This document shows, in pieces, positions 2,297 to 26,448 of a stretch of 64,000 bases of DNA. Numbering within the stretch: position 1 is the first letter of the stretch; each line of letters starts with the position of its first letter. Source of the stretch: an uncultured bacterium (lineage in GTDB: Bacteria > Oederibacteriota > Oederibacteriia > Oederibacteriales > Oederibacteriaceae); the NCBI GenBank assembly GCA_965112635.1, contig OZ218778.1, forward strand, positions 2,048,001 through 2,112,000, read 5' to 3'. Both the position numbers and the translations under genes were made by a program. Under the pieces are notes generated by a model. It searched no databases. It was given only the letters and a program-made list of their open reading frames with translations, and was not told the origin of the DNA.

Positions 2297-2324
2297 TTGA
2301 CAGATGTGATTACGGTGATATCAT
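2297..2324 (+). promoter_or_regulatory. Sigma70-type promoter of the flgF operon
   Basis: TTGACA (2297-2302), 16 bp spacer, extended -10 TGnTATCAT (-10 at 2319-2324). Confidence 0.7.
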
Positions 2325-2339
2325 TACGTCAGAAGGTGG

Positions 2340-2443
2340 AAACTAGTAAGGTAGGCTGGACTGCTTTGCAGAAGCCTGTAATTGCCGATTGACTGAGGCA
2401 ATTTTTTTACAGCGATTTAGTTCGAGCCGATCCTTACTGGTTT
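2340..2443 (+). ncRNA. Candidate cis-regulatory leader RNA, copy 1 (flgF leader)
   Basis: Hairpin A UAGGCU-GGA-CUGC-uuu-GCAG-A-AGCCUG (2352-2378); hairpin B AAUUGCC-GAUUGACUGA-GGCAAUU (2380-2403); closing helix 2340-2351/2432-2443; related copies at 21116 and 24548. Confidence 0.7.
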
Positions 2444-2467
2444 TTTACCAGTAAGGATTTTTTATTT
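2430..2467 (+). terminator. Intrinsic terminator inside the flgF 5' leader (attenuator)
   Basis: Perfect 12 bp stem ATCCTTACTGGT/ACCAGTAAGGAT followed by TTTTTATTT, just before the flgF SD (AGGAGG 2471-2476). Confidence 0.8.
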
Positions 2468-2483: not shown

Positions 2484-3272
2484 ATGATCGCTGGTATTTA
2501 TACCTCTGCTTCAGGAATGATCGCCTATCAAACCCAAATGGATGTTGTGGCGAATAATCTTGCCAATGTTTCCACGACTGGTTTTAAAAAAGACGAAGCC
2601 GTCTTCACGGCCTTTCCTTCCTGGGTCATTCATCGTGTCAATGACAATATCGTTCCCATGGGAAGCGGTGCATTAGATTTGAGGCCTGCCATCGGCGTGA
2701 GAGGCGGAGGCGTGCAAGTCATGGACAATAATGTCATCCCGCGTTTTGATCAAGGCTCTTTGCAAGGAACGGACAATCCTTTTGATCTTGCCATTGAAGG
2801 GTCCGGTTTTTTTTCAGTGCAGACTCCCCAGGGGATCCGGTATACCCGTAATGGAAATTTTACGCTAAGCAGCAATAAAGAGCTTGTCAATATGGAGGGG
2901 TGTCAAGTTTTAGGAAATGATAACAAGCCCATAGTCATAAATGGTGACAAGGTCAACGTGATCGGGGACGGCTCGGTCTATGTTGACGGCATAAAGACCA
3001 ATCAGGTCGCCCTGACCGAGTTTGCTAACCCCCAATCTCTGACCAAACAAGGCGATGGGTTGTTCATTGCTCCGCAGGGGGTGGCACTAAACACCGGGAC
3101 GCCACAGTCCAGAGTCCACCAGGGCTCTCTAGAGTCATCCAATGTCAATACAATTGGGGAAATGGTCAAAATGATCGCTACGATGAGAGCGTATGAGGCA
3201 AGCCAACGCATGATCAGTTACCAGGACAGCACGCTCGGACACGCGGTCAACGATATTGCCAGAATGGCTTAA
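2484..3272 (+). CDS. flgF: Flagellar basal-body rod protein FlgF
   Basis: ANNLANVSTTGFKK, DLAIEGSGFF, YTRNGNF, LESSNVN; precedes flgG. Confidence 0.9.
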   Translation: MIAGIYTSASGMIAYQTQMDVVANNLANVSTTGFKKDEAVFTAFPSWVIHRVNDNIVPMGSGALDLRPAIGVRGGGVQVMDNNVIPRFDQGSLQGTDNPFDLAIEGSGFFSVQTPQGIRYTRNGNFTLSSNKELVNMEGCQVLGNDNKPIVINGDKVNVIGDGSVYVDGIKTNQVALTEFANPQSLTKQGDGLFIAPQGVALNTGTPQSRVHQGSLESSNVNTIGEMVKMIATMRAYEASQRMISYQDSTLGHAVNDIARMA

Positions 3273-3314: not shown

Positions 3315-4112
3315 ATGATGAGGACATTGTGGTCAGCTGCGTCAGGCATGTTGGCCCAGCAATTGAATATTGATACAATCAGTAATAACCTGGCGAATGT
3401 GAGCACGACAGGTTATAAGAAAAGCAGGGTGGAATTCCAAGATCTGTTGTATCAAACCATTCGACCTTCAGGTGTTCCGCTTTCTACGGGCACGCAAACA
3501 GCCATTGGGGTGCAGGTAGGCACAGGTACAAAACCTGTGGCTATCCAAAAGCTGTTCACCCAGGGAGAGACCACGATTACCAACAATCCTCTGGACCTAG
3601 AGGTTGACGGAGATGGCTTCTTCCAGGTATCCCAGCCTGATGGAACTATCGCCTATACAAGGGACGGGAGTTTCAACCAGGATGCTGCCGGGCATATCGT
3701 TACGCCAGACGGCAATTATTTGCAGCCTGAAATTTCTATTCCGCAAGATATAACCAGCGTCAGCATCAGCTCGGAAGGCAAGGTTTTTGGGACGGTCCCC
3801 GGACAAACCGACCAATCGCTTTTGGGCGAAATTGAGTTAGTGAAATTTGTCAACCCTGCCGGGCTTAATGCTTTGGGGGGCAATCTGTACGCCGCCACCT
3901 CTGCTTCCGGTGAACCTATCCAGGGTGTCCCCGGTGTCAATGGGTTCGGGTCCATCGCCCAAGGTTCCTTGGAAAATTCAAATGTGCAAGTCGTGGAAGA
4001 AATGGTGAACATGATCATATCCCAAAGGGCTTATGAAGTTAACGCCAAGGCCATCACGACGGCGGACCAGATGCTTTCGTTGGCCAATAACCTCAGGGGA
4101 CAGAACGCATAA
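3315..4112 (+). CDS. flgG: Flagellar distal rod protein FlgG
   Basis: SNNLANVSTTGYKK, FQDLLYQ, QVGTG, YTRDGSF, LENSNVQVVEEMV. Confidence 0.95.
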   Translation: MMRTLWSAASGMLAQQLNIDTISNNLANVSTTGYKKSRVEFQDLLYQTIRPSGVPLSTGTQTAIGVQVGTGTKPVAIQKLFTQGETTITNNPLDLEVDGDGFFQVSQPDGTIAYTRDGSFNQDAAGHIVTPDGNYLQPEISIPQDITSVSISSEGKVFGTVPGQTDQSLLGEIELVKFVNPAGLNALGGNLYAATSASGEPIQGVPGVNGFGSIAQGSLENSNVQVVEEMVNMIISQRAYEVNAKAITTADQMLSLANNLRGQNA

Positions 4113-10523: not shown

Positions 10524-12338
10524 GTGAAAAATTTACTTAAAAAGCGTATTTTGGTCCTGGGGTTTGTTTTGACTTTTGGCTGGTCATCCTCTGTTTGGGC
10601 TGCGGATTGGCCGATTTTTCATTTTGACGGCAGTTCCGGTTTTACCACGGACAGTATTGGGGCGCAGAATCTGGAGAGGTGGAATCATCCTTGTCCCAAT
10701 GCACCCACTTCATGCGTAGTGATTAATGGTTTCACCTATTACACCACCCAAGCAGGAGTTTATAAACTGGACAGCACCGGAGCTCTATCCTCCACTTGGC
10801 CGATAAATCCGGTCAATCCTTCCAGTCTTTCCACAACCTACTACACGATGCCGGCTTACTGGAATAGCGTGATCTATGTCGGGGCCTGGGACCCTACCCA
10901 ATCCAGTAAGAACGGCGTTTATGCGATCAAAACTGCTGATGGCTCTGCGTATTGGACCAATCCGCCGACCTGTCCTGGTTACTGCAACTACAATACCTCC
11001 CAGATCAATACCTACGCGGCTCCCATAGTCGGAAATGCCGGAGCGGTGGAGGCTGTTTTTGTGGGGGATACTGGCGGTAATATTTACGCTTTTGACACGA
11101 CCAAAACAATCCCTACCGCTCTCTGGAGCCACAACCTGGGAACCATGGGACTTTATTCCACTCCGGCTTATTGGACAGATGGAACAGATGCCTGGGTCTA
11201 TTTTGCAATGGTTGCCAGTAACCCCATCAATAGCAAGATATACAAAGTTTTTGCGTCCAGCGGTTTTTGGTTTGGCCCGCCCTTCGGTGTTCATTCCAAT
11301 CCCTGGGCTTGGCCGGCGGTAGGGACCGTAGAAGGTTTTTATTCCTCGCCGGCTGTGGACAGCAGCGGCAATGTATATGTTGGATGCGATAACGATAATG
11401 TCTATTCTATATCTTTGACCGAGACGATGAATTGGACCTTTACGGCTGGGGATGTCGTAAGATCGAGCCCTGCAGTAGCCACGCTGGGCGGGACTCACTA
11501 TGTTTTTGTGGGTTCCAACGACGGCAATCTCTATGCGCTCAATGCGAATACTGGAGCGCAGATATGGAATTATCAGGTGGGAGTCCCTGGTTACGCCGCA
11601 TTGGGTGCTCCGGCAATCAGCCGGGATGGCCTGGTTTATTTTGGCAGCGGGAGTCTCTCGGCTAATATGTATATTTTTCAGGGCAATCCACTTCCATCCA
11701 CTACGCCTCAAGTGGTAGCCACGGTAGGCCCGTGGGGTGTTAACAGCATATTATCCCCAGCACTCAGCGATACAACCGCAGGCGGCGGATTTCCTGCCGC
11801 TTATGTTGCCGCGGATAAAATCTATTGCTTGGGACCGACCTATACTTTGACCCAGTCGGCTACGCCTACGGTGACTGGGACGCCCGGCCCGCCTAGCACT
11901 TCAACGCCAACTTTGACGCCCTTGACTCCGTTTAATACTCCCACTATTACCGTAACATTCACCTGCACTTTGACTCCCACAATTACCACGACGGCCACTG
12001 CCACTCAGACAACTACCATGACCCCCACCATCAGCCCCACTAGTACTCTTACCCTGACATTGACGCCGCCCCCGTATATCATCGTATATCCCAATCCGAT
12101 GAATTTCAGCCAATATAAAGGGGTTAAGATCATCGGAACGCCTATTCTTGGCGCCGATATTGCCATCTATACTATTTCAGGAGAAACAGTGAGAAAGGTT
12201 TCCAAAAATACAGCTTACCCATTTATTTGGGACGGTAATAATGACGACGGTGTACCTGTGGTCACGGGCCTTTATCTCTATATCATCAACACCGCTGACG
12301 GCAATAGCATCAAAGGCAAGTTAGCCATCATTCGTTAA
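10524..12338 (+). CDS. Secreted PQQ-like beta-propeller protein with Thr/Pro linker and T9SS-type (FlgD Ig-like) C-terminal sorting domain
   Basis: Signal peptide VWA-ADWP; repeats SSPAV/VFVGSNDGNLYALNANTG; T/P tract ~11838-12074; tail VYPNP..IYTISGETV..WDGNNDDG..TGLYLY..KLAIIR. Confidence 0.8.
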   Translation: MKNLLKKRILVLGFVLTFGWSSSVWAADWPIFHFDGSSGFTTDSIGAQNLERWNHPCPNAPTSCVVINGFTYYTTQAGVYKLDSTGALSSTWPINPVNPSSLSTTYYTMPAYWNSVIYVGAWDPTQSSKNGVYAIKTADGSAYWTNPPTCPGYCNYNTSQINTYAAPIVGNAGAVEAVFVGDTGGNIYAFDTTKTIPTALWSHNLGTMGLYSTPAYWTDGTDAWVYFAMVASNPINSKIYKVFASSGFWFGPPFGVHSNPWAWPAVGTVEGFYSSPAVDSSGNVYVGCDNDNVYSISLTETMNWTFTAGDVVRSSPAVATLGGTHYVFVGSNDGNLYALNANTGAQIWNYQVGVPGYAALGAPAISRDGLVYFGSGSLSANMYIFQGNPLPSTTPQVVATVGPWGVNSILSPALSDTTAGGGFPAAYVAADKIYCLGPTYTLTQSATPTVTGTPGPPSTSTPTLTPLTPFNTPTITVTFTCTLTPTITTTATATQTTTMTPTISPTSTLTLTLTPPPYIIVYPNPMNFSQYKGVKIIGTPILGADIAIYTISGETVRKVSKNTAYPFIWDGNNDDGVPVVTGLYLYIINTADGNSIKGKLAIIR

Positions 12339-12353
12339 CCTGGGGGAATCTGT

Positions 12354-13469
12354 TTGAAAATTTTATTGTGGCCGGCAACAATATCCCGTCCTAAGGCCGA
12401 GCCCCAAAACCATAGAGGTGTTTTAGTCGGCAGTGCCGCAATGAACCCAGCCACAATCCCCGATATCAAACCTTGTCCACGGTGGACATCACGACTGCTT
12501 CTGGGAATAGCAGTTTTATTGGTATTCCCGGCTTTAAACGCTCAGAAGGCCATGGCTCAAGAGTCTCGTGGGGGGACAACGGCCGCCAATTTTCTGAAGA
12601 TAGGTGTGGGGGCCAGGCCGCTGGGCATGGGCGGAGCCTACGTGGCTATTGCCGATGACTCGAGCAGCGCTTACTGGAACCCGGCGGGATTAGCCAATAT
12701 GGACGCTCAAGTCATCCAATTGGAGCACGCGGAATGGTATGAAGGCATACAATATGAATATTTTGTCGTTGCCCAGCCCGCAGAGTCCTTCGGCCTTCCT
12801 ATTTGGGGCGCTATGGCCTTCTCTTGGTATTATTTGCACATGGGTGATATCCAGCGGACCTTAGAAGACAATATGAGCGGCGACGTGGTCATTCCAGGCG
12901 GCTCCTATTCCGCGGCAGACAGTATTCTTGCCATTTCGTACGGGGGCCAGCTGACCAATTTCCAGGCTTTTGGCATTGGTCTGAAATTCCTGAATCAAAA
13001 GCTGGATTATCTAAATAATAGCGGGATGGCATTTGATTTTGGGATCCAAAGCGCGGCGCCATTAAAAAATTTAAAGATAGGCCTGACCCTGTCCAATATG
13101 GGCCAGGATTTTATGGGCAGCCCGTTACCCACTACATTTAAAATGGGTGTTAATTATAAACTTGCCGGGAGGGGATTCCCCGGCGAATGGAACAACGAGA
13201 TAGACGGGTTGCTGCCGCTGATCAATAGCGATCAAATACCCCAGGCCCTTTTTGGCTCGGAATATGCCATCAACATGAGCACTCAAAAATATTCGTTCCG
13301 GGTCGGGTATGACACGGGTAGAGAGATTGGAACTGCTTTTACAGGGCTTTCCCTTGGCCTAGGATACCTTATCCGATTGGGAAGGTTGGACCTGGGAATA
13401 GATTACGCCTATCTATTTCAGGGAGACTTTGGCGCGACCCACCACTTTACTCTCAATTTAACTTTTTAA
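12354..13469 (+). CDS. PorV/PorQ-family outer-membrane beta-barrel (start uncertain)
   Basis: FLKIGVGARPLGMGGAYVAIADDSSSAYWNPAGL motif; ends IDYAY..HHFTLNLTF. Confidence 0.85.
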   Translation: MKILLWPATISRPKAEPQNHRGVLVGSAAMNPATIPDIKPCPRWTSRLLLGIAVLLVFPALNAQKAMAQESRGGTTAANFLKIGVGARPLGMGGAYVAIADDSSSAYWNPAGLANMDAQVIQLEHAEWYEGIQYEYFVVAQPAESFGLPIWGAMAFSWYYLHMGDIQRTLEDNMSGDVVIPGGSYSAADSILAISYGGQLTNFQAFGIGLKFLNQKLDYLNNSGMAFDFGIQSAAPLKNLKIGLTLSNMGQDFMGSPLPTTFKMGVNYKLAGRGFPGEWNNEIDGLLPLINSDQIPQALFGSEYAINMSTQKYSFRVGYDTGREIGTAFTGLSLGLGYLIRLGRLDLGIDYAYLFQGDFGATHHFTLNLTF

Positions 13470-20978: not shown

Positions 20979-21064
20979 TATTGCTGGGGTTGTAGGATTT
21001 TCAGGGTTAAATTCATTTTATAAAGTTTTTTTCAGGGTATTTCAGAGACTTTTAAGGGGTACCC

Positions 21065-21092
21065 TTGACAAAGCTGGATCTAGGAGTATAAA
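21065..21092 (+). promoter_or_regulatory. Internal sigma70 promoter for fliK-flgD-flgE
   Basis: TTGACA-N16-TATAAA in a long intergenic region. Confidence 0.6.
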
Positions 21093-21115
21093 TAAGAATA
21101 GAAACAGAAAAATTT

Positions 21116-21189
21116 AGGACATAAATGGCTGGACTGCTTAGCAGAAGCCAATGGTTGCTGAATGAATGAAGCAATCAGTTTTATGTCCT
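21116..21189 (+). ncRNA. Candidate cis-regulatory leader RNA, copy 2 (fliK leader)
   Basis: UGGCU-GGA-CUGC-uua-GCAG-A-AGCCA; UGGUUGCU-GAAUGAAUGA-AGCAAUCA; closing helix AGGACAUAAA/UUUAUGUCCU. Confidence 0.7.
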
Positions 21190-21366
21190 CACGTTGCAGG
21201 TGAGGAAAATGAGAGCGGTCAATTTAGATCTCAAAAAAGATTTCCTAACCCACCAAAGTTTTTTTCTTGAAGTTTATCTTTCTCAATTCATGAAGAATAT
21301 ATTTGATGATTGTTTGTTGCTGCCTCATTGTTTTTGTTTGATTCCTGCAGAAGGGAGGCAGATCAA

Positions 21367-23646
21367 ATGATTATCAATCAACCCTCCCAGGCACTACCTA
21401 TCTTGAATTTCCTTGATGGTGCTGGCAATCAATCGCAGCAGGGAACACCTGGTGGCCAGACATTCAGTGATGCTTTCATTGCGGCTAGCCAGGGATTGGC
21501 TGGCCTGCCTATTTCACCCGCCATTCAAAATAGTCCCAACACAATAAATGTCGATCCTGAAAAAATAAACCAGGCTACCATGCAGTTAATAAGCGACGTT
21601 AATTCGATGCCAGTCTCGAATCAAAATCATGCCTGGAATAATGTTCCTGATCAGTTAGTCCAATCCCAAAAATCCAATGAGGTCAATTTATTCGGAAATG
21701 GCTATAATGCCATGACAATAGATAATCTGCAGGTCCAGCAAAACAGTGTTCCCTCCAATCAAGGCGTGATGAGTAACGGCGCACCCTCTTTACCTTACAT
21801 TGATAACGAGAGTGAGGCAAACGGTTCATTTGAGCTTAAGACCCAGGGCGTATTTGGCAGCAACAATATCGTGCCGCAGCAAGGTCAAGAACAGCAGGGT
21901 CTTGTGGTAAGCCAAAAGCAAATGCAGGTGTCCGCTTCAGATTCCATAAAAGAGAATAGCTCTATTGATGCTGCGACAATGTCGCCCGCGAGTGAAAACA
22001 TCCTGGGCAGCCAGATTGATTCAGTGAGCCAGGATATCTTCGCTTCCTCAAATCTAAGTGCATTGACAGATTCCAGCAAAGTTAGTCCAGTTGCTAGTTT
22101 AATTTATGGACACGAACTTGGCTCTCCAGCTGTTTCGCAGTTCTCCGGACCAAGCGCAGATCCTTTATTAAGTACTGCCGGACCCAATATCCAAGTTCAA
22201 CCGCAAGCAGTTGCTTCGCCTGTTCCACTATACCGGGGAGATCAGCCAGTTCTCTATTCAGATAGCGGAAGCATGGGAACATTTGGGACGGAAAATTCGG
22301 TAACTCTTAGCCGGCAAGATAGTGATGGACAAACGAAGGACATGGCTCAACCGACAGCTACCCAATCGAGCATCATGGCGGGAGCTTTGTGGGCCAGTGC
22401 TGTCAATCAGGGAGCCTATTTTATTCCTGAGGCTGAGAGCAATTCTATTGCTACTAATAATGCGACTTCGTCAGAAGCACTTACGAGCAATGCAGCGGGA
22501 GCTGGGTTAAACGTAGTAACTGACGACCAATTGAGTAGCCAAGGTGCCTTAAATAATGACGCTGTGCTGAATGTGAGCAGTACGACGGAAGGTCAAAATT
22601 TGGATTTATCAAATTATCAAGACGTATTTAATCAGGTTACTGGTACGCAAGCGGGAACCGGCTCCCTCAATAATTCACCATCAGAAAAGATGCTTTCTAT
22701 GCAAAGCAGCTACGATATAAATAAGTCGATTGATGATGAGCTGCCGGTTGTTTCAGAGAATGTTTTAGGTGCACCGCAGTCTTCCAATACCCCAGTTATA
22801 CCTGCATCAAATTACGTTGTTGCAGCGAACACCCAGGTTCCCGCAATAAACGCAGTTCTTTCCGGCCAGTTTGGCCAGAATATAGGGGTAGCCAACGCAA
22901 AATCCAATATTGTGGTGCTAAATCAAAATCACGAGGTTCTGCCCGAGACCGTTTCTTCCCTAGATAATAATGGCAACAACTTCGTTCAAAATCCTCAAAA
23001 TACCGGAAATCCCCTTGAATTAAAGGCATTTGTTGGCCTTATGGGCAGTGGCGGCCTGTCAATCTCCGGAGGCAATAATTTTAACGGAAGTAGCAGCTTG
23101 CCGATCATAGCTCCCCAAGTGAAACCGGAGGACCTGCAGATTGGCTTAAACCCCAGCGTTGTGGATTTAGCCAGCAGCCGGCCTGGTAACAGTGATATGA
23201 AAATCCTCCAAAATAATGTGCAGAAATCGGTCAATGATGAGGTATTCAGCCAAATTGTTGAAAAGGCTAACCTTATGATAAATGCAGGAGTCAGTCAGAT
23301 CAATATTGTGCTTAAACCAGAACATTTAGGGACCCTGTTGCTCCAAGTCACTCATACCCAGAATGCTCTTTCCGCCTCAATCCAAACCCCCAATGCTGCG
23401 GTCAGCGATGTCCTTAAGTCCCAGTTGGGAGCTTTAAAGACATCTCTTGCGGCTGAGGGAGTCCATCTGCAAAATTTAAATGTTTTCACGGGGAGCAATT
23501 TTAACCAGAACGGGAACAATGCGGGTAATTGGGAAAGGGCGGATTACCCTAACATTTTGCCGGTTTCATTGAGATCTATTTCTAGCGAAGATAATTATTC
23601 CCTGAACCGTATCGGCAGCGACAGTTTAGTGGATGTTTTTGCTTAA
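21367..23646 (+). CDS. fliK: Hook-length control protein FliK (long, ~760 aa)
   Basis: Low-complexity S/N/Q-rich N-region; C-terminal IVLKPEHLGTL..LKSQLGALKTSL; precedes flgD. Confidence 0.88.
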   Translation: MIINQPSQALPILNFLDGAGNQSQQGTPGGQTFSDAFIAASQGLAGLPISPAIQNSPNTINVDPEKINQATMQLISDVNSMPVSNQNHAWNNVPDQLVQSQKSNEVNLFGNGYNAMTIDNLQVQQNSVPSNQGVMSNGAPSLPYIDNESEANGSFELKTQGVFGSNNIVPQQGQEQQGLVVSQKQMQVSASDSIKENSSIDAATMSPASENILGSQIDSVSQDIFASSNLSALTDSSKVSPVASLIYGHELGSPAVSQFSGPSADPLLSTAGPNIQVQPQAVASPVPLYRGDQPVLYSDSGSMGTFGTENSVTLSRQDSDGQTKDMAQPTATQSSIMAGALWASAVNQGAYFIPEAESNSIATNNATSSEALTSNAAGAGLNVVTDDQLSSQGALNNDAVLNVSSTTEGQNLDLSNYQDVFNQVTGTQAGTGSLNNSPSEKMLSMQSSYDINKSIDDELPVVSENVLGAPQSSNTPVIPASNYVVAANTQVPAINAVLSGQFGQNIGVANAKSNIVVLNQNHEVLPETVSSLDNNGNNFVQNPQNTGNPLELKAFVGLMGSGGLSISGGNNFNGSSSLPIIAPQVKPEDLQIGLNPSVVDLASSRPGNSDMKILQNNVQKSVNDEVFSQIVEKANLMINAGVSQINIVLKPEHLGTLLLQVTHTQNALSASIQTPNAAVSDVLKSQLGALKTSLAAEGVHLQNLNVFTGSNFNQNGNNAGNWERADYPNILPVSLRSISSEDNYSLNRIGSDSLVDVFA

Positions 23647-23675
23647 ATATTCTTAATCTTAAGGAGGTGAGTGAG

Positions 23676-24104
23676 ATGTCTACAGGCATTGGCAGTATCT
23701 TGAGCAGTTTGACCAGTAGTGCAAACACCACAAAGGACACTAATGCGTTAGCTTCTGGCCAAGCATTGACCGAGTCTGATTTTCTGAATATGCTGATCAC
23801 AGAGCTGGAGAACCAGGACCCGACCAATCCGGTGGATGATACGCAGATGGCCTCGCAAATGGCCCAATTCAGTTCCCTGGCAGCCATGACCAATATGTCG
23901 ACGACCCTGCAGTCCATGAGCAATTCCGAGTCTTTATACAGCGGAGTGGCGATGATAGGCAAAACTATCGCGGCGACAGACCCCAAGACCGGAGCAGTGA
24001 CCCAGGGAGTCGTCAGCCAAGTCCACATTGACGGCACCGGCAATACGACGCTTTTGGTGGGGAATTCGACCGTACCTTTATCCAATGTAACAACCGTAAT
24101 GTAA
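23676..24104 (+). CDS. flgD: Hook cap FlgD (short form)
   Basis: FLNMLITELENQDPTNP..QMAQFSSL..MIGK. Confidence 0.93.
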   Translation: MSTGIGSILSSLTSSANTTKDTNALASGQALTESDFLNMLITELENQDPTNPVDDTQMASQMAQFSSLAAMTNMSTTLQSMSNSESLYSGVAMIGKTIAATDPKTGAVTQGVVSQVHIDGTGNTTLLVGNSTVPLSNVTTVM

Positions 24105-24137: not shown

Positions 24138-24527
24138 GTGGTAGATAGGATCCAGTCCCTAGGACAGACTCAAAACATTCCAGATTTGCTAAAAGACAGA
24201 GCTGTCAAAAAGCCCGCTAATGCTGGACCCTCATTCCAGGATGTTTTCCAAGGTGCGGCGGATAAGACCTCCCCGGTCAAATTTTCCGCGCATGCGCTAC
24301 AAAGGCTGCAAATGAGGAATATCCAGCTCAGCCCCCAGGATCTTTCCAAGATTGATGGGGCAGTCAATAAGGCAGCGAGCAAAGGGGCGCGCGAGTCATT
24401 GTTGGTAATGAACAATAATCTGGCGTTAGTGGTCAGCGTCAAGAACCGCACGGTCATTACGGCTGTGGACGGCCAGAGCATGAAAGACAATGTGTTCACC
24501 AACATTGATAGTGCGGTGATTCTATAA
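24138..24527 (+). CDS. Flagellar operon protein, TIGR02530-like
   Basis: KFSAHALQRLQMRNI..KGARESL..VSVKNRTVITA..VFTNIDSAV; between flgD and flgE. Confidence 0.88.
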   Translation: MVDRIQSLGQTQNIPDLLKDRAVKKPANAGPSFQDVFQGAADKTSPVKFSAHALQRLQMRNIQLSPQDLSKIDGAVNKAASKGARESLLVMNNNLALVVSVKNRTVITAVDGQSMKDNVFTNIDSAVIL

Positions 24528-24547
24528 AGTTAGAAAAATTATGTATT

Positions 24548-24609
24548 GTTCAAGCTGGACCTCGTTGAGGAAGCTTGAATCGGGGAGCCCAATAGTAAAT
24601 TGGGACTCC
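24548..24609 (+). ncRNA. Candidate leader RNA, copy 3 (flgE leader; hairpin A plus an unrelated hairpin)
   Basis: GUUCAAGCU-GGA-CCUC-guu-GAGG-A-AGCUUGAAU (24548-24580): same internal loop, covaried stems. Confidence 0.62.
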
Positions 24610-24633
24610 AAACTCAAAAGGAGGTTGATCGAT

Positions 24634-26373
24634 ATGGCGTTACTAGGAGCAATGGGAGCAGCAATATCAGGATTAGGTTCGTTCAACCAGTGGATGACTG
24701 TCATCGGTAACAATATCGCCAATGACAACACCACGGGTTATAAGTCGAGTACGGTAGAATTTTCAGATCTATTCAGCCAGACCCTCTCTGGCGCCAGCGG
24801 TTATGACTCATCATCCAACACGGGTGGTATTGATCCGCGGCAGATCGGTTTAGGCACCCAAATCTCATCGGTTTCTATGAATATGACCCAGGGTGCCATC
24901 CAAACCGCCAGTAGTCCTACGGATATGGCTATCCAGGGTAATGGTTTTTTTGTCACCAAGACCGGGCTGAACACCACTTATACCCGCGATGGGAGTTTTA
25001 GTTTTGATAATGACGGCAATTTGGTCTCTCCGAGTGGTGCTATTGCTCAGGGTTGGGTGGCCAGTGAAATTCAGGACGGCCTCAACATACCTGCTGCTCC
25101 TGCTGTGGCGGTTAATACGGTAATTCAAGGGGATAGTATCACAATGAATACTTCTGATACTTCTGCTATAACAAATATCAATATCCCTCAGCATGGACTG
25201 ACCATCGCTCAACAGACAACCCTTGTTGATATTCAGGGTAATTTGGATCAGAATACCGCCGCTAATGCAACAGACGCTGATATAACAGCGATGATTGGTC
25301 TTGGAGGGACCGATGTTTCAACGCTGCAAGGTGGGGGATTAGTTATACCTAGTGGGGATACAAATCCATTTGCTAATGTGACTCCTGATGCCACTACATC
25401 AACCACTGTTTATGATTCGCTGGGAAATCCTCAGGAGGTAACATTCTGGTACCTCAAAGATGCCAATAACGCCGATAATTCACCGACGTGGGATTGGTAT
25501 GCTTTTGATACGACCGGTGGAGTAACCCCTTCTAATACTAATTGTATCGGTGGGACTGGGTTGGAATACACTAATGCCAATGCCCCGAATCCTAATGGTT
25601 TGCCTAATGTAGTGACCGGCAAGGTTTGGGGTACCATACAATTTAATGCTGATGGTTCGTTAGCAAATAATGGGGGATTCCCAACTGCCGGTGCAAATGC
25701 TATGCAGGCAGACCCAATTCTTTGCTTCCAGCCAGCTCCACCTGATGCTGGGACCTTGGTTCTAAACGACGGCGCTATTTCTTCAATGAACTTTCAGGTA
25801 CATTTCGGCACCCCCAATACATGGGCAAATGCTGGAAATAATTTGGCGGGTGGAGACCCAGTTGCCCAGGTTAACAATGTGTTTGAGTTTGGGAAACGGG
25901 ATGGTTTGACTGGCGATGTAACTGGATCCTATCAATTGGAAAATGGAGTAGAAACATATGTGCCGAACAGTGACCCCAATGTAAAGGACCAGAATGGATA
26001 TACAGATGGTACCCTGAATGGGGTCAGTGTGGACCAATCAGGGAATATTGTTGGTTCCTTTACTAATGGGAAAAATATCACTCTGGCCAGGGTGGCGTTG
26101 GCGAATTTTGCCAATCCAGATGGTTTAACAAGGGTAGGCGGGAATCAATATATGTCTACCTCTAACTCTGGATTACCAGTAGTGGGTTCAGCCGGAACCT
26201 TTGGCCTGGGCAATATCGAGGGAGGTTCTCTGGAAGGGTCCAATGTGGACCTGGCCACCGAGCTGACCAATATGATCATTGCCCAGAGAGGCTTTGAATC
26301 CAACGCCAGGGTAGTTACCGAGGTAGATAATATGCTCGGTACCCTGGATTCGTTGGGTCAAGGCGGGGTTTAA
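24634..26373 (+). CDS. flgE: Flagellar hook protein FlgE with large insertions
   Basis: GNNIANDNTTGYK, QIGLG, YTRDGSF, VYDSLG, QNGYTDG, LEGSNVDLATELT; ATG after AGGAGG. Confidence 0.93.
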   Translation: MALLGAMGAAISGLGSFNQWMTVIGNNIANDNTTGYKSSTVEFSDLFSQTLSGASGYDSSSNTGGIDPRQIGLGTQISSVSMNMTQGAIQTASSPTDMAIQGNGFFVTKTGLNTTYTRDGSFSFDNDGNLVSPSGAIAQGWVASEIQDGLNIPAAPAVAVNTVIQGDSITMNTSDTSAITNINIPQHGLTIAQQTTLVDIQGNLDQNTAANATDADITAMIGLGGTDVSTLQGGGLVIPSGDTNPFANVTPDATTSTTVYDSLGNPQEVTFWYLKDANNADNSPTWDWYAFDTTGGVTPSNTNCIGGTGLEYTNANAPNPNGLPNVVTGKVWGTIQFNADGSLANNGGFPTAGANAMQADPILCFQPAPPDAGTLVLNDGAISSMNFQVHFGTPNTWANAGNNLAGGDPVAQVNNVFEFGKRDGLTGDVTGSYQLENGVETYVPNSDPNVKDQNGYTDGTLNGVSVDQSGNIVGSFTNGKNITLARVALANFANPDGLTRVGGNQYMSTSNSGLPVVGSAGTFGLGNIEGGSLEGSNVDLATELTNMIIAQRGFESNARVVTEVDNMLGTLDSLGQGGV

Positions 26374-26398
26374 AAGTAATATCAATATAAAATGGGCG

Positions 26399-26430
26399 CC
26401 CTCTAGGCTGTAAAAAAACAGCCTAGAGGG
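26399..26430 (+). terminator. Strong hairpin after flgE (weak terminator or mRNA stabiliser)
   Basis: 13 bp perfect stem CCCTCTAGGCTGT/ACAGCCTAGAGGG, poor U-tail. Confidence 0.5.
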
Positions 26431-26448
26431 TTGCTTATTAGGAAAAAT

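Follow-up and report, generated by a model that had tools for sequence, protein, structure and literature searches.

Why does a flagellar operon carry a small gene of the family TIGR02530 between the hook genes flgD and flgE, and why is this gene followed by two RNA hairpins? We addressed this question in a 64,000-nucleotide (nt) stretch of DNA, hereafter the window, from an uncultured bacterium of the Oederibacteriaceae (assembly GCA_965112635.1, contig OZ218778.1, positions 2,048,001 to 2,112,000 of the forward strand). Positions 24138-24609 of the window comprise the TIGR02530 gene and two hairpins 3' of it. An earlier, sequence-only reading had named the gene product as a candidate partner of this RNA, with a hairpin carrying a GGA bulge as the proposed binding site. 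The best-supported reading of our own analysis is likewise that the TIGR02530 protein and the two-hairpin leader constitute a protein-RNA pair, a proposal to which we assign about even weight. Such a protein-leader RNA system would be built from a toxin-type RNase fold and would probably be an undescribed control of flagellum building.

A conserved flagellar gene between flgD and flgE

The gene product is a member of NCBIfam TIGR02530 at equivalog level, scoring 117.3 bits against a cut-off of 83.2 with all profile positions covered (1-96 of 96), and it carries Pfam PF12611 at its C-terminus (53.1 bits, threshold 21.1). The family description, which we take to specify a flagellar operon and a place between flgD and flgE, holds for the window, where the gene lies between these two genes with intergenic gaps of 33 nt upstream and 106 nt downstream. 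We compared it with 80 loci encoding relatives, from genomes labelled candidate division FCPU426 (the closest), Negativicutes, Clostridia, Eremiobacterota and many others. Cultured carriers among the relatives include Sporomusa malonica DSM 5090 and Fuchsiella alkaliacetigena. FlgD was encoded upstream of the TIGR02530 gene in 78/80 of these loci, and the FlgE N-terminus was found downstream in 74/80. A type II toxin would be expected to have an antitoxin beside it; the neighbours, here and in the related loci, were flgD and flgE, with no antitoxin-like gene.

The family comprises 2,356 clusters at 50 % identity. Its occurrence was analysed in two phylum-wide samples, namely 99 genomes of the bacterium's own phylum and 151 genomes (>= 90 % complete) of the phylum of G099, a metagenome-assembled genome labelled Clostridiaceae (hereafter the G099 phylum). 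The gene was present in 60/99 own-phylum genomes and in 105/121 FlgD-positive genomes of the G099 phylum. It was absent from 14 control genomes, including four with FlgD (E. coli, B. subtilis, C. vibrioides and T. maritima), and in the gene table of C. difficile 630 flgE stands directly after flgD. One relative occurred in the phage collection, in an unannotated 'Bacteriophage sp.' record (36 % identity). A TIGR02530-like open reading frame mentioned in the available part of the megaphage G paper was not reproduced in that collection at E <= 1e-3.

The family is catalogued, and searches of the literature on TIGR02530/PF12611, DUF4258 and flgE leaders yielded no functional work and no tested function, the family being named in passing at most. 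The neglect of both gene and RNA may be due to the absence of the family from model organisms.

The folded domain remotely resembles toxin-type RNases

The protein is basic, as had been noted from the sequence, with an isoelectric point (pI) of 9.82 (10.0 for residues 46-129; median of 41 relatives, 9.35). In an AlphaFold2 model built with 41 relatives, residues 1-29 were disordered, with a predicted local distance difference test score (pLDDT) <50, and the N-terminal ~30 residues were poorly conserved as well. Most of residues 50-129 had pLDDT >90. The modelled secondary structure consisted of helices 51-59 and 66-81 and strands 86-90, 95-100, 105-111 and 125-128. Residues ~44-129 are accordingly predicted to form a helix-helix-three-strand-strand domain of the RelE or Barnase-EndoU-Colicin-RelE (BECR) type, the order of elements fitting that fold.

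A structure search of 48,161 chains, run independently of Foldseek, pointed to this class. The best 14 chains all belonged to the RelE/ParE superfamily, 13 of them toxins and one the RelE-like C-terminal part of Cami1 (Z 4.7-5.8; root-mean-square deviation 2.9-4.1; 63-78 residues aligned; sequence identity 4-19 %). The matches named among them were PrpT, the Cami1 part, ParE1, YafQ, a Helicobacter toxin, archaeal and E. coli RelE and HigB2, and lower-ranked matches included colicin-type and contact-dependent inhibition (CDI) RNase domains and T4 RegB. Sequence searches of the PDB with the single protein and with a profile gave no relative, their one match (E 1.3) being noise, and a search of the ESM Atlas gave nothing beyond the protein's own family.

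The sequence-only reading had also seen a resemblance to the start of DUF4258 and to RelE-like folds. The motif concerned, F49-S50-x-H52-A53-x-x-R56, sits in the first helix of the folded domain, and the FSAHALQRLQMRNI segment (residues 49-63) gave a sub-threshold match to positions 1-15 of the 71-position DUF4258 profile (PF14076). The same weak match was seen in 25/41 relatives (best E 7e-4). When the TIGR02530 family profile was compared by hhalign with nine DUF4258 proteins taken from related genomes, homology was detected at profile level (probability 89.9 %, E 1.7e-6, 65 columns, residues 38-104). The resemblance is thus real but remote, being upheld by the profile comparison and by the 14 superfamily matches and falling short of the Pfam gathering score. 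Across 75 family members, each representing a different 50 %-identity cluster, F33, S50, H52, R56, T108, T121, I123 and D124 were invariant, and R60 was nearly so.

Four copies of a two-hairpin leader in one genome

A structural scan of the window for look-alike hairpins returned three with the same build, that is, an outer stem GCU/AGC, a GGA bulge on the 5' side, a 4-bp inner stem, a 3-nt loop and a bulged A. In the whole genome, a single contig of 2.88 Mb that is 96.9 % complete, the strict form (gcuGGA, 4 bp, 3-nt loop, 4 bp, A, agc) occurred four times, always on the + strand, three of these being in the window (copies 1-3) and one outside it (copy 4; Table 1). A second hairpin (P2) was present 3' of the first (P1) in each of the four copies. 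A generic repeat search missed the motif, the copies being too short.

Copy 3 is the one behind the TIGR02530 gene. Its P1 pairs the outer stem GCU/AGC and an inner stem CCUC/GAGG, with the GGA bulge on the 5' side and the single bulged A on the 3' side. The fold z-score for copy 3 is -3.2. The earlier placement of both neighbouring copies was accurate: the gene, said to end about 20 nt before copy 3, ends 21 nt before its P1, and copy 2 lies upstream of the gene on the same strand. Copy 2 occupies the non-coding fliJ-fliK spacer together with a promoter-like site, and an internal promoter therefore seems to drive fliK-flgD-TIGR02530.

Copies 1 and 4 both lie between a promoter and a terminator, and their terminators are near-identical. 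The leader of copy 1 can adopt mutually exclusive folds involving the terminator; in the one of minimum energy, P1 gives way to pairing between the 5' flank and the left terminator arm. The product of the gene behind copy 4, Ser/Thr/Asn/Gln-rich and 161 aa long, contains a His7 run and matched no Pfam family. As its N-terminal 'NDFADLLLSQL' is FlgD-like by eye, this protein may be a flagellar export substrate that has gone unrecognised.

Two other readings of the hairpin were considered and rejected by eye. A sigma-54 promoter reading of CTGGAC...TTGCA has a GG-to-GC spacing of 8 instead of 10, and copy 3 has no GC. A K-turn reading of the 3-nt bulge lacks G-A pairs after the bulge.

The leader is conserved and covaries in relatives

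In almost every one of the related loci the TIGR02530 stop codon was followed by gggCUGGACCUC-loop-GAGGAAGCCC, a hairpin with a GAAUGACAGA-like loop, a Shine-Dalgarno sequence and flgE. A simple pattern scan of 60 relatives gave mostly chance matches in coding DNA and three real ones, and covariance models were used instead. With a model built from the sequences of these loci, a match was found just 3' of the gene in 78/80 loci, and the flanking 6 kb on each side contained no other. P1 began between -3 and +3 nt from the TIGR02530 stop codon in 45 of the 78.

The structure is supported by covariation. Across 75 matches, in an alignment fitted to the covariance model and hence favouring the structure, 94.8 % of cells paired and 14/15 pairs showed compensatory change. 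None of 500 shuffled controls reached the score obtained on the 75 sequences, and slid controls did not come close either. An independent MAFFT/RNAalifold run recovered covariation in all six pairs of P2. The bulge itself was nearly fixed (GG in 75/75, A in 72/75, the following C in 75/75), and the P2 loop had the consensus GAnnGAnnGA. By eye, the motif was followed in most genomes by neither a terminator nor an obvious Shine-Dalgarno-sequestering helix.

No Rfam 15 family matched at threshold in the window or in four related loci, and E-value scans of three leader sets gave nothing relevant. A match to the Rfam L10-leader (E 0.34) was rejected, as it merely reflects the terminator.

Some loci showed local elaborations of the leader. 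In four Bacillota loci (L045, L062, L086 and L040) the stretch between motif and Shine-Dalgarno sequence was full of short tandem repeats, either CUAG/UAAC-rich (for example 'ctagcaactagtaactgg...') or 'cattcatcgtt'. Locus L157 (G211:C89) had an insertion of ~90 nt with 'caattgaca' tandem repeats in the P1 loop, with the P1 arms and P2 kept.

Gene and RNA occur together

We then counted gene, RNA and FlgD across the two samples. In the own phylum (n = 99), FlgD was found in 67 genomes, the gene in 60 and the RNA, scored by the covariance model, in 46; 42 genomes had both gene and RNA, 18 the gene only and 4 the RNA only. The G099 phylum (n = 151) had FlgD in 121 genomes, the gene in 105 and the RNA in 102, with both in 101, the gene only in 4 and the RNA only in 1. 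Among FlgD-positive genomes without the gene, the RNA was found in 0/7 (own phylum) and 0/16 (G099 phylum), and these 23 genomes held no RNA copy at sites away from the gene either. The co-occurrence anticipated from the sequence was therefore borne out in both samples, and it extended to copies away from the gene.

Most discordant genomes could be accounted for by inspection. Of the 18 own-phylum genomes with the gene only, 15 were examined, and 14 of these had a divergent GGA-bulged hairpin and a short second hairpin after the gene; in the fifteenth, the gene end was not located by the script. The four gene-only genomes of the G099 phylum all had a divergent RNA copy by eye, one with a long insertion in the P1 loop. 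The four own-phylum genomes with the RNA only came from one family and were fragmented assemblies, in one of which FlgD lay on the last bases of a contig. Judged by position relative to other family members, their matches look like the flgG-leader copy. The single RNA-only genome of the G099 phylum (G129) also had no FlgD, and its match was a flgG leader.

The junctions of gene-less loci were also read directly. In 6 of the 7 FlgD-positive gene-less loci of the own phylum, flgE began 18-46 nt after flgD. Of the 16 such loci in the G099 phylum, 14 were read, and flgE followed flgD directly in 13, which carried at least seven FlgE sequence types (by eye). The flgD-flgE gap in those 13 was <= ~30 nt in eight and 74-151 nt in five; the five wider gaps, when folded and read, contained no GGA-bulged hairpin.

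RNA copies at other sites pointed to a broader target set. The largest family of the own phylum had a second copy between flgF and flgG. Among 20 extra copies from the G099 phylum and Sporomusa, 14 lay before flgG-like genes, one before a second flgE-like gene and one before a flagellin-like gene, with four unclear (genes named by N-terminal resemblance, by eye). The sequence-only reading had proposed regulation of hook genes; this proves too narrow, because the extra copies mostly precede flgG-like rod genes. The copy before the flagellin-like gene is at locus L175 (G201:C6), in a genome with four copies.

A proposed protein-RNA pair

From these observations we infer that the protein binds the RNA, that binding leads to cleavage or regulation, and in which direction this acts. 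The gene product would be a BECR-fold protein that has been domesticated, with the DUF4258 toxins as its nearest family, and would have the dedicated task of recognising RNA for the flagellar system. The ~65-nt two-hairpin leader before flgE, before flgG-type rod genes and, here, before fliK would be its target, recognised through P1 with its invariant 5' GGA bulge and P2 with its GAnnGAnnGA loop. The basic folded domain may dock on the P1 bulge and the P2 loop via the helix bearing the invariant His52 and Arg56. The protein would then either cut the polycistronic RNA at the leader or hold the leader in one fold, and the amounts of hook and distal-rod protein would thereby be set relative to those of the other genes of these long operons.

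Several features of the loci would suit this scheme. FlgE and FlgG are the most abundant subunits of the hook-basal body. After a cut, the leader hairpins would form a protected 5' end, and the 14-bp hairpin that follows flgE may be a 3' end, stabiliser or processing site of the flgE transcript, bracketing flgE between structured ends. All three are compatible with a function in adjusting how much of the high-copy axial parts is made. At copies 1 and 4, binding would choose between read-through and termination; as the minimum-energy fold of copy 1 sacrifices P1, binding of P1 and P2 could decide between these outcomes. Where P1 lies no more than 3 nt from the stop codon, as in 45/78 loci, a ribosome completing translation of the gene has to unwind P1, a hint of coupling or autoregulation.

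A more specific version of the pair can be imagined, in which TIGR02530 is a tamed toxin-type endoribonuclease that cuts or clamps the leader and so sets FlgE and FlgG output, until the export gate removes it via its disordered N-terminus. We regard this version as a long shot. If true, it would amount to a hook-stage checkpoint analogous to FlgM or FliW-CsrA, made of an RNase fold and a dedicated RNA, and would serve bacteria without the hierarchy of model organisms.

Alternative explanations

Several results weigh against a protein-RNA pair. The Z values of the structural matches were modest (4.7-5.8), a range that the search tool rates as middling, with the caution that Z <8 can mean a common arrangement; we therefore treated the fold evidence by itself as no more than suggestive. 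At E <= 0.001 Foldseek retrieved nothing from the PDB (the best RelE rows had E 0.4-0.5), and the DUF4258 match scored 12.3 bits against a gathering score of 25 (E 0.21). Copy 3 matched the covariance model (24549-24600) at only 32 bits, and its P2 is atypical. An unlinked RNA copy was present in only about half of the carrier genomes. The gene adjoins the main RNA copy, so that one deletion removes both, and the counts come from related, non-independent genomes; independent losses were not countable in the G099 sample, which came without taxonomy. Co-occurrence alone therefore cannot prove partnership. Furthermore, the RNA model was trained beside the gene and could miss variants in gene-less genomes, a bias against which 19 flgD-flgE junctions were read.

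The same evidence was set against three other explanations. In the first, the protein is an accessory of hook assembly or export, either an escort of FlgE or FlgD or a substrate of the export gate, and the RNA works on its own in cis, increasing flgE and flgG output, for instance as a 5' stabiliser or a processing site; the two would be neighbours by virtue of a shared ancestral operon layout. The invariable place of the gene between flgD and flgE, the NCBIfam name 'flagellar biosynthesis protein' and the physical adjacency of gene and main RNA copy all suit this view, and the strong hairpin after flgE fits simple transcript stabilisation. The disordered N-terminus, combined with the operon position, would likewise suit an exported assembly factor and counts against the pair, as many exported flagellar proteins have disordered N-termini. 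An assembly factor would not, however, be expected to have a folded domain of the predicted RNase-toxin class with an invariant DUF4258 H-A-x-x-R motif, and the invariant GGA bulge and GAnnGAnnGA loop exceed the needs of a stabilising hairpin. Unlinked flgG-leader copies were found in 0/23 FlgD-positive gene-less genomes. We consider this explanation unlikely, if still a serious candidate.

In the second, the RNA is read by a small-molecule ligand, as a riboswitch, or by some other protein, and the RelE-like protein has another site of action, such as the ribosome while axial proteins are translated, much as RelE relatives act in the ribosomal A site. Two of the copies in this genome do have a riboswitch-like promoter-leader-terminator layout, and P1 abuts the stop codon of the gene in over half of the loci with a match (45/78). 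A ligand-sensing RNA, however, gives no reason for strict co-occurrence with one small gene; two short hairpins would offer little enclosed pocket; and most genomes lack, by eye, a terminator or an obvious Shine-Dalgarno-sequestering helix after the motif. We judge this quite improbable.

A third possibility, that CsrA binds the GGA-bearing leader as it does flagellin leaders and that TIGR02530 has no part in this, is highly improbable: the invariant GGA of P1 and the GGA inside the Shine-Dalgarno sequence do resemble the two-site CsrA layout, but the GGA lies in an internal bulge and not in a hairpin loop, and the distribution of CsrA does not match that of the motif, there being no CsrA match at E <= 0.01 in this single-contig genome with its four motif copies and full flagellar gene set, nor at E <= 0.001 in at least 10 of the 105 gene-carrying genomes of the G099 phylum, whereas CsrA was present in 8/16 flagellated genomes of that phylum without the RNA.

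If the pairing of protein and leader is true, flagellar assembly would be controlled at a further, new post-transcriptional level in a large proportion of flagellated bacteria. The pair would also clearly exemplify the recruitment of a toxin-type RNase fold to housekeeping regulation, and would give a first functional handle on the DUF4258 branch.

Relationship to known systems

The DUF4258 (PF14076)/Ntox49-type BECR toxins share with TIGR02530 the N-terminal helix motif (F/W)-x-x-H-A-x-x-R-x-x-x-R-x-I and the order helix, helix, three strands. Unlike these toxins, the TIGR02530 gene has no antitoxin or immunity neighbour and is fixed between flgD and flgE, and its product has an N-terminal extension of ~45 residues and its own conserved C-terminal NVFTNIDSA strand (PF12611). 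In the available text of PMC11980606, DUF4258 is listed as a BECR-fold toxin family whose activity is untested, and the accessible part of a 2026 preprint on BECR proteins moves it to a colicin-like branch; the strings 'flagell' and 'TIGR02530' do not occur in the available text of either source. The RelE/ParE superfamily (RelE, YafQ, HigB, YoeB, ParE, PrpT) supplied the best structural matches of the TIGR02530 model, yet at 4-19 % sequence identity, and the TIGR02530 gene differs from its members in having no antitoxin.

Phage T4 RegB, a RelE-like-fold enzyme that cuts mRNAs at GGAG, also appeared in the structure search (2hx6, Z 3.5, 100 residues aligned). It may serve by analogy as a precedent for sequence-specific, non-toxin use of a RelE-like fold, but its structural score is low, it has no sequence relation to TIGR02530 and its biological setting is another.

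FliW-CsrA controls flagellin leaders, including that of B. subtilis hag. In outline, the pair proposed here would resemble this system (B. subtilis hag, C. jejuni flaA) in that a small protein reads a GGA-bearing flagellar leader post-transcriptionally. It would differ in protein fold, in its targets (hook and rod genes versus the filament) and in the position of the GGA (bulge versus loop). The case of the C. jejuni flaA leader is covered in the available text of PMC4894983. We therefore liken the candidate pair in outline to FliW-CsrA or to a hairpin-specific processing enzyme, and do not count it as a member of those systems.

Termite-flg (RF01729), a structured RNA upstream of flagellar genes, is to our knowledge the one published flagellar leader motif, and resembles the present leader in this position. 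It is not the same motif, as the RF01729 model matched 0/4 copies in the genome. Its sole match lay elsewhere in the genome (E 8, 14.7 bits, gathering score 40), and it was absent from the E-value scans of the leader sets. Termite-flg was reported, in the available text, by Weinberg et al. 2010 (PMC2864571).

Features of the locus and neighbouring genes

The TIGR02530 gene is part of a classical flagellar gene string in the order fliI, fliJ, 390-nt spacer, fliK, flgD, TIGR02530 gene, flgE, flbD, motA, motB, fliL and fliM. Coordinates of the genes and RNA elements discussed above are collected in Table 1.

Table 1 Genes, leader copies and associated signals (window positions unless marked as genome positions).
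Feature	Position	Strand	Remarks
Sigma-70-like promoter of copy 1	2297-2324	+	Upstream of motif
Motif copy 1	2351-2403	+	P1 2351-2379, P2 2380-2403; leader of two rod-type genes; covariance-model match 2350-2413, 52 bits
Terminator-like hairpin with U run	2430-2463	+	Between copy 1 and rod-type genes
Two rod-type genes	2484-3272, 3315-4112	+	Behind copy 1, their leader
fliJ-fliK non-coding spacer	20979-21366		390 nt; promoter, motif copy 2, further hairpin CCUCAC...GUGAGG
Sigma-70-like promoter before copy 2	TTGACA 21065-21070, TATAAA 21087-21092	+	Upstream of fliK-flgD-TIGR02530
Motif copy 2	21126-21177	+	fliJ-fliK spacer; P1 21126-21150, P2 21152-21177, loop UGAAUGAAUGA; covariance-model match 21123-21186, 55 bits
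fliK	21367-23646	+	After 390-nt spacer
flgD (hook cap)	23667-24104	+	Directly upstream of TIGR02530 gene
TIGR02530 (flg_new) gene	24138-24527	+	GTG start, AGGAGG 8 nt upstream, 129 aa
Motif copy 3, hairpin P1	24549-24579	+	Begins 21 nt after TIGR02530 stop codon; 24548-24580 in the structural scan
Motif copy 3, hairpin P2	24584-24609	+	Short-loop variant typical of own-phylum flgE leaders
Shine-Dalgarno sequence of flgE, AAAGGAGG	24618-24625	+	Ahead of ATG 24634
flgE (hook protein)	24634-26373	+	Behind motif copy 3; likely start ATG 24634
14-bp perfect hairpin without U run	26398-26431	+	Directly after flgE stop codon
Motif copy 4	Genome 1010348 (G000:C1:1010344-1011043, locus L032)	+	58.7 bits; own terminator

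Finally, two unexpected genes were found within the flagellar cluster at window positions 10524-13469. The first encodes a 604-aa beta-propeller protein with a weak signal for a FlgD-Ig/type IX secretion system (T9SS) C-terminal domain. The second, whose hits were below threshold, encodes a 371-aa PorV/FadL-like barrel.

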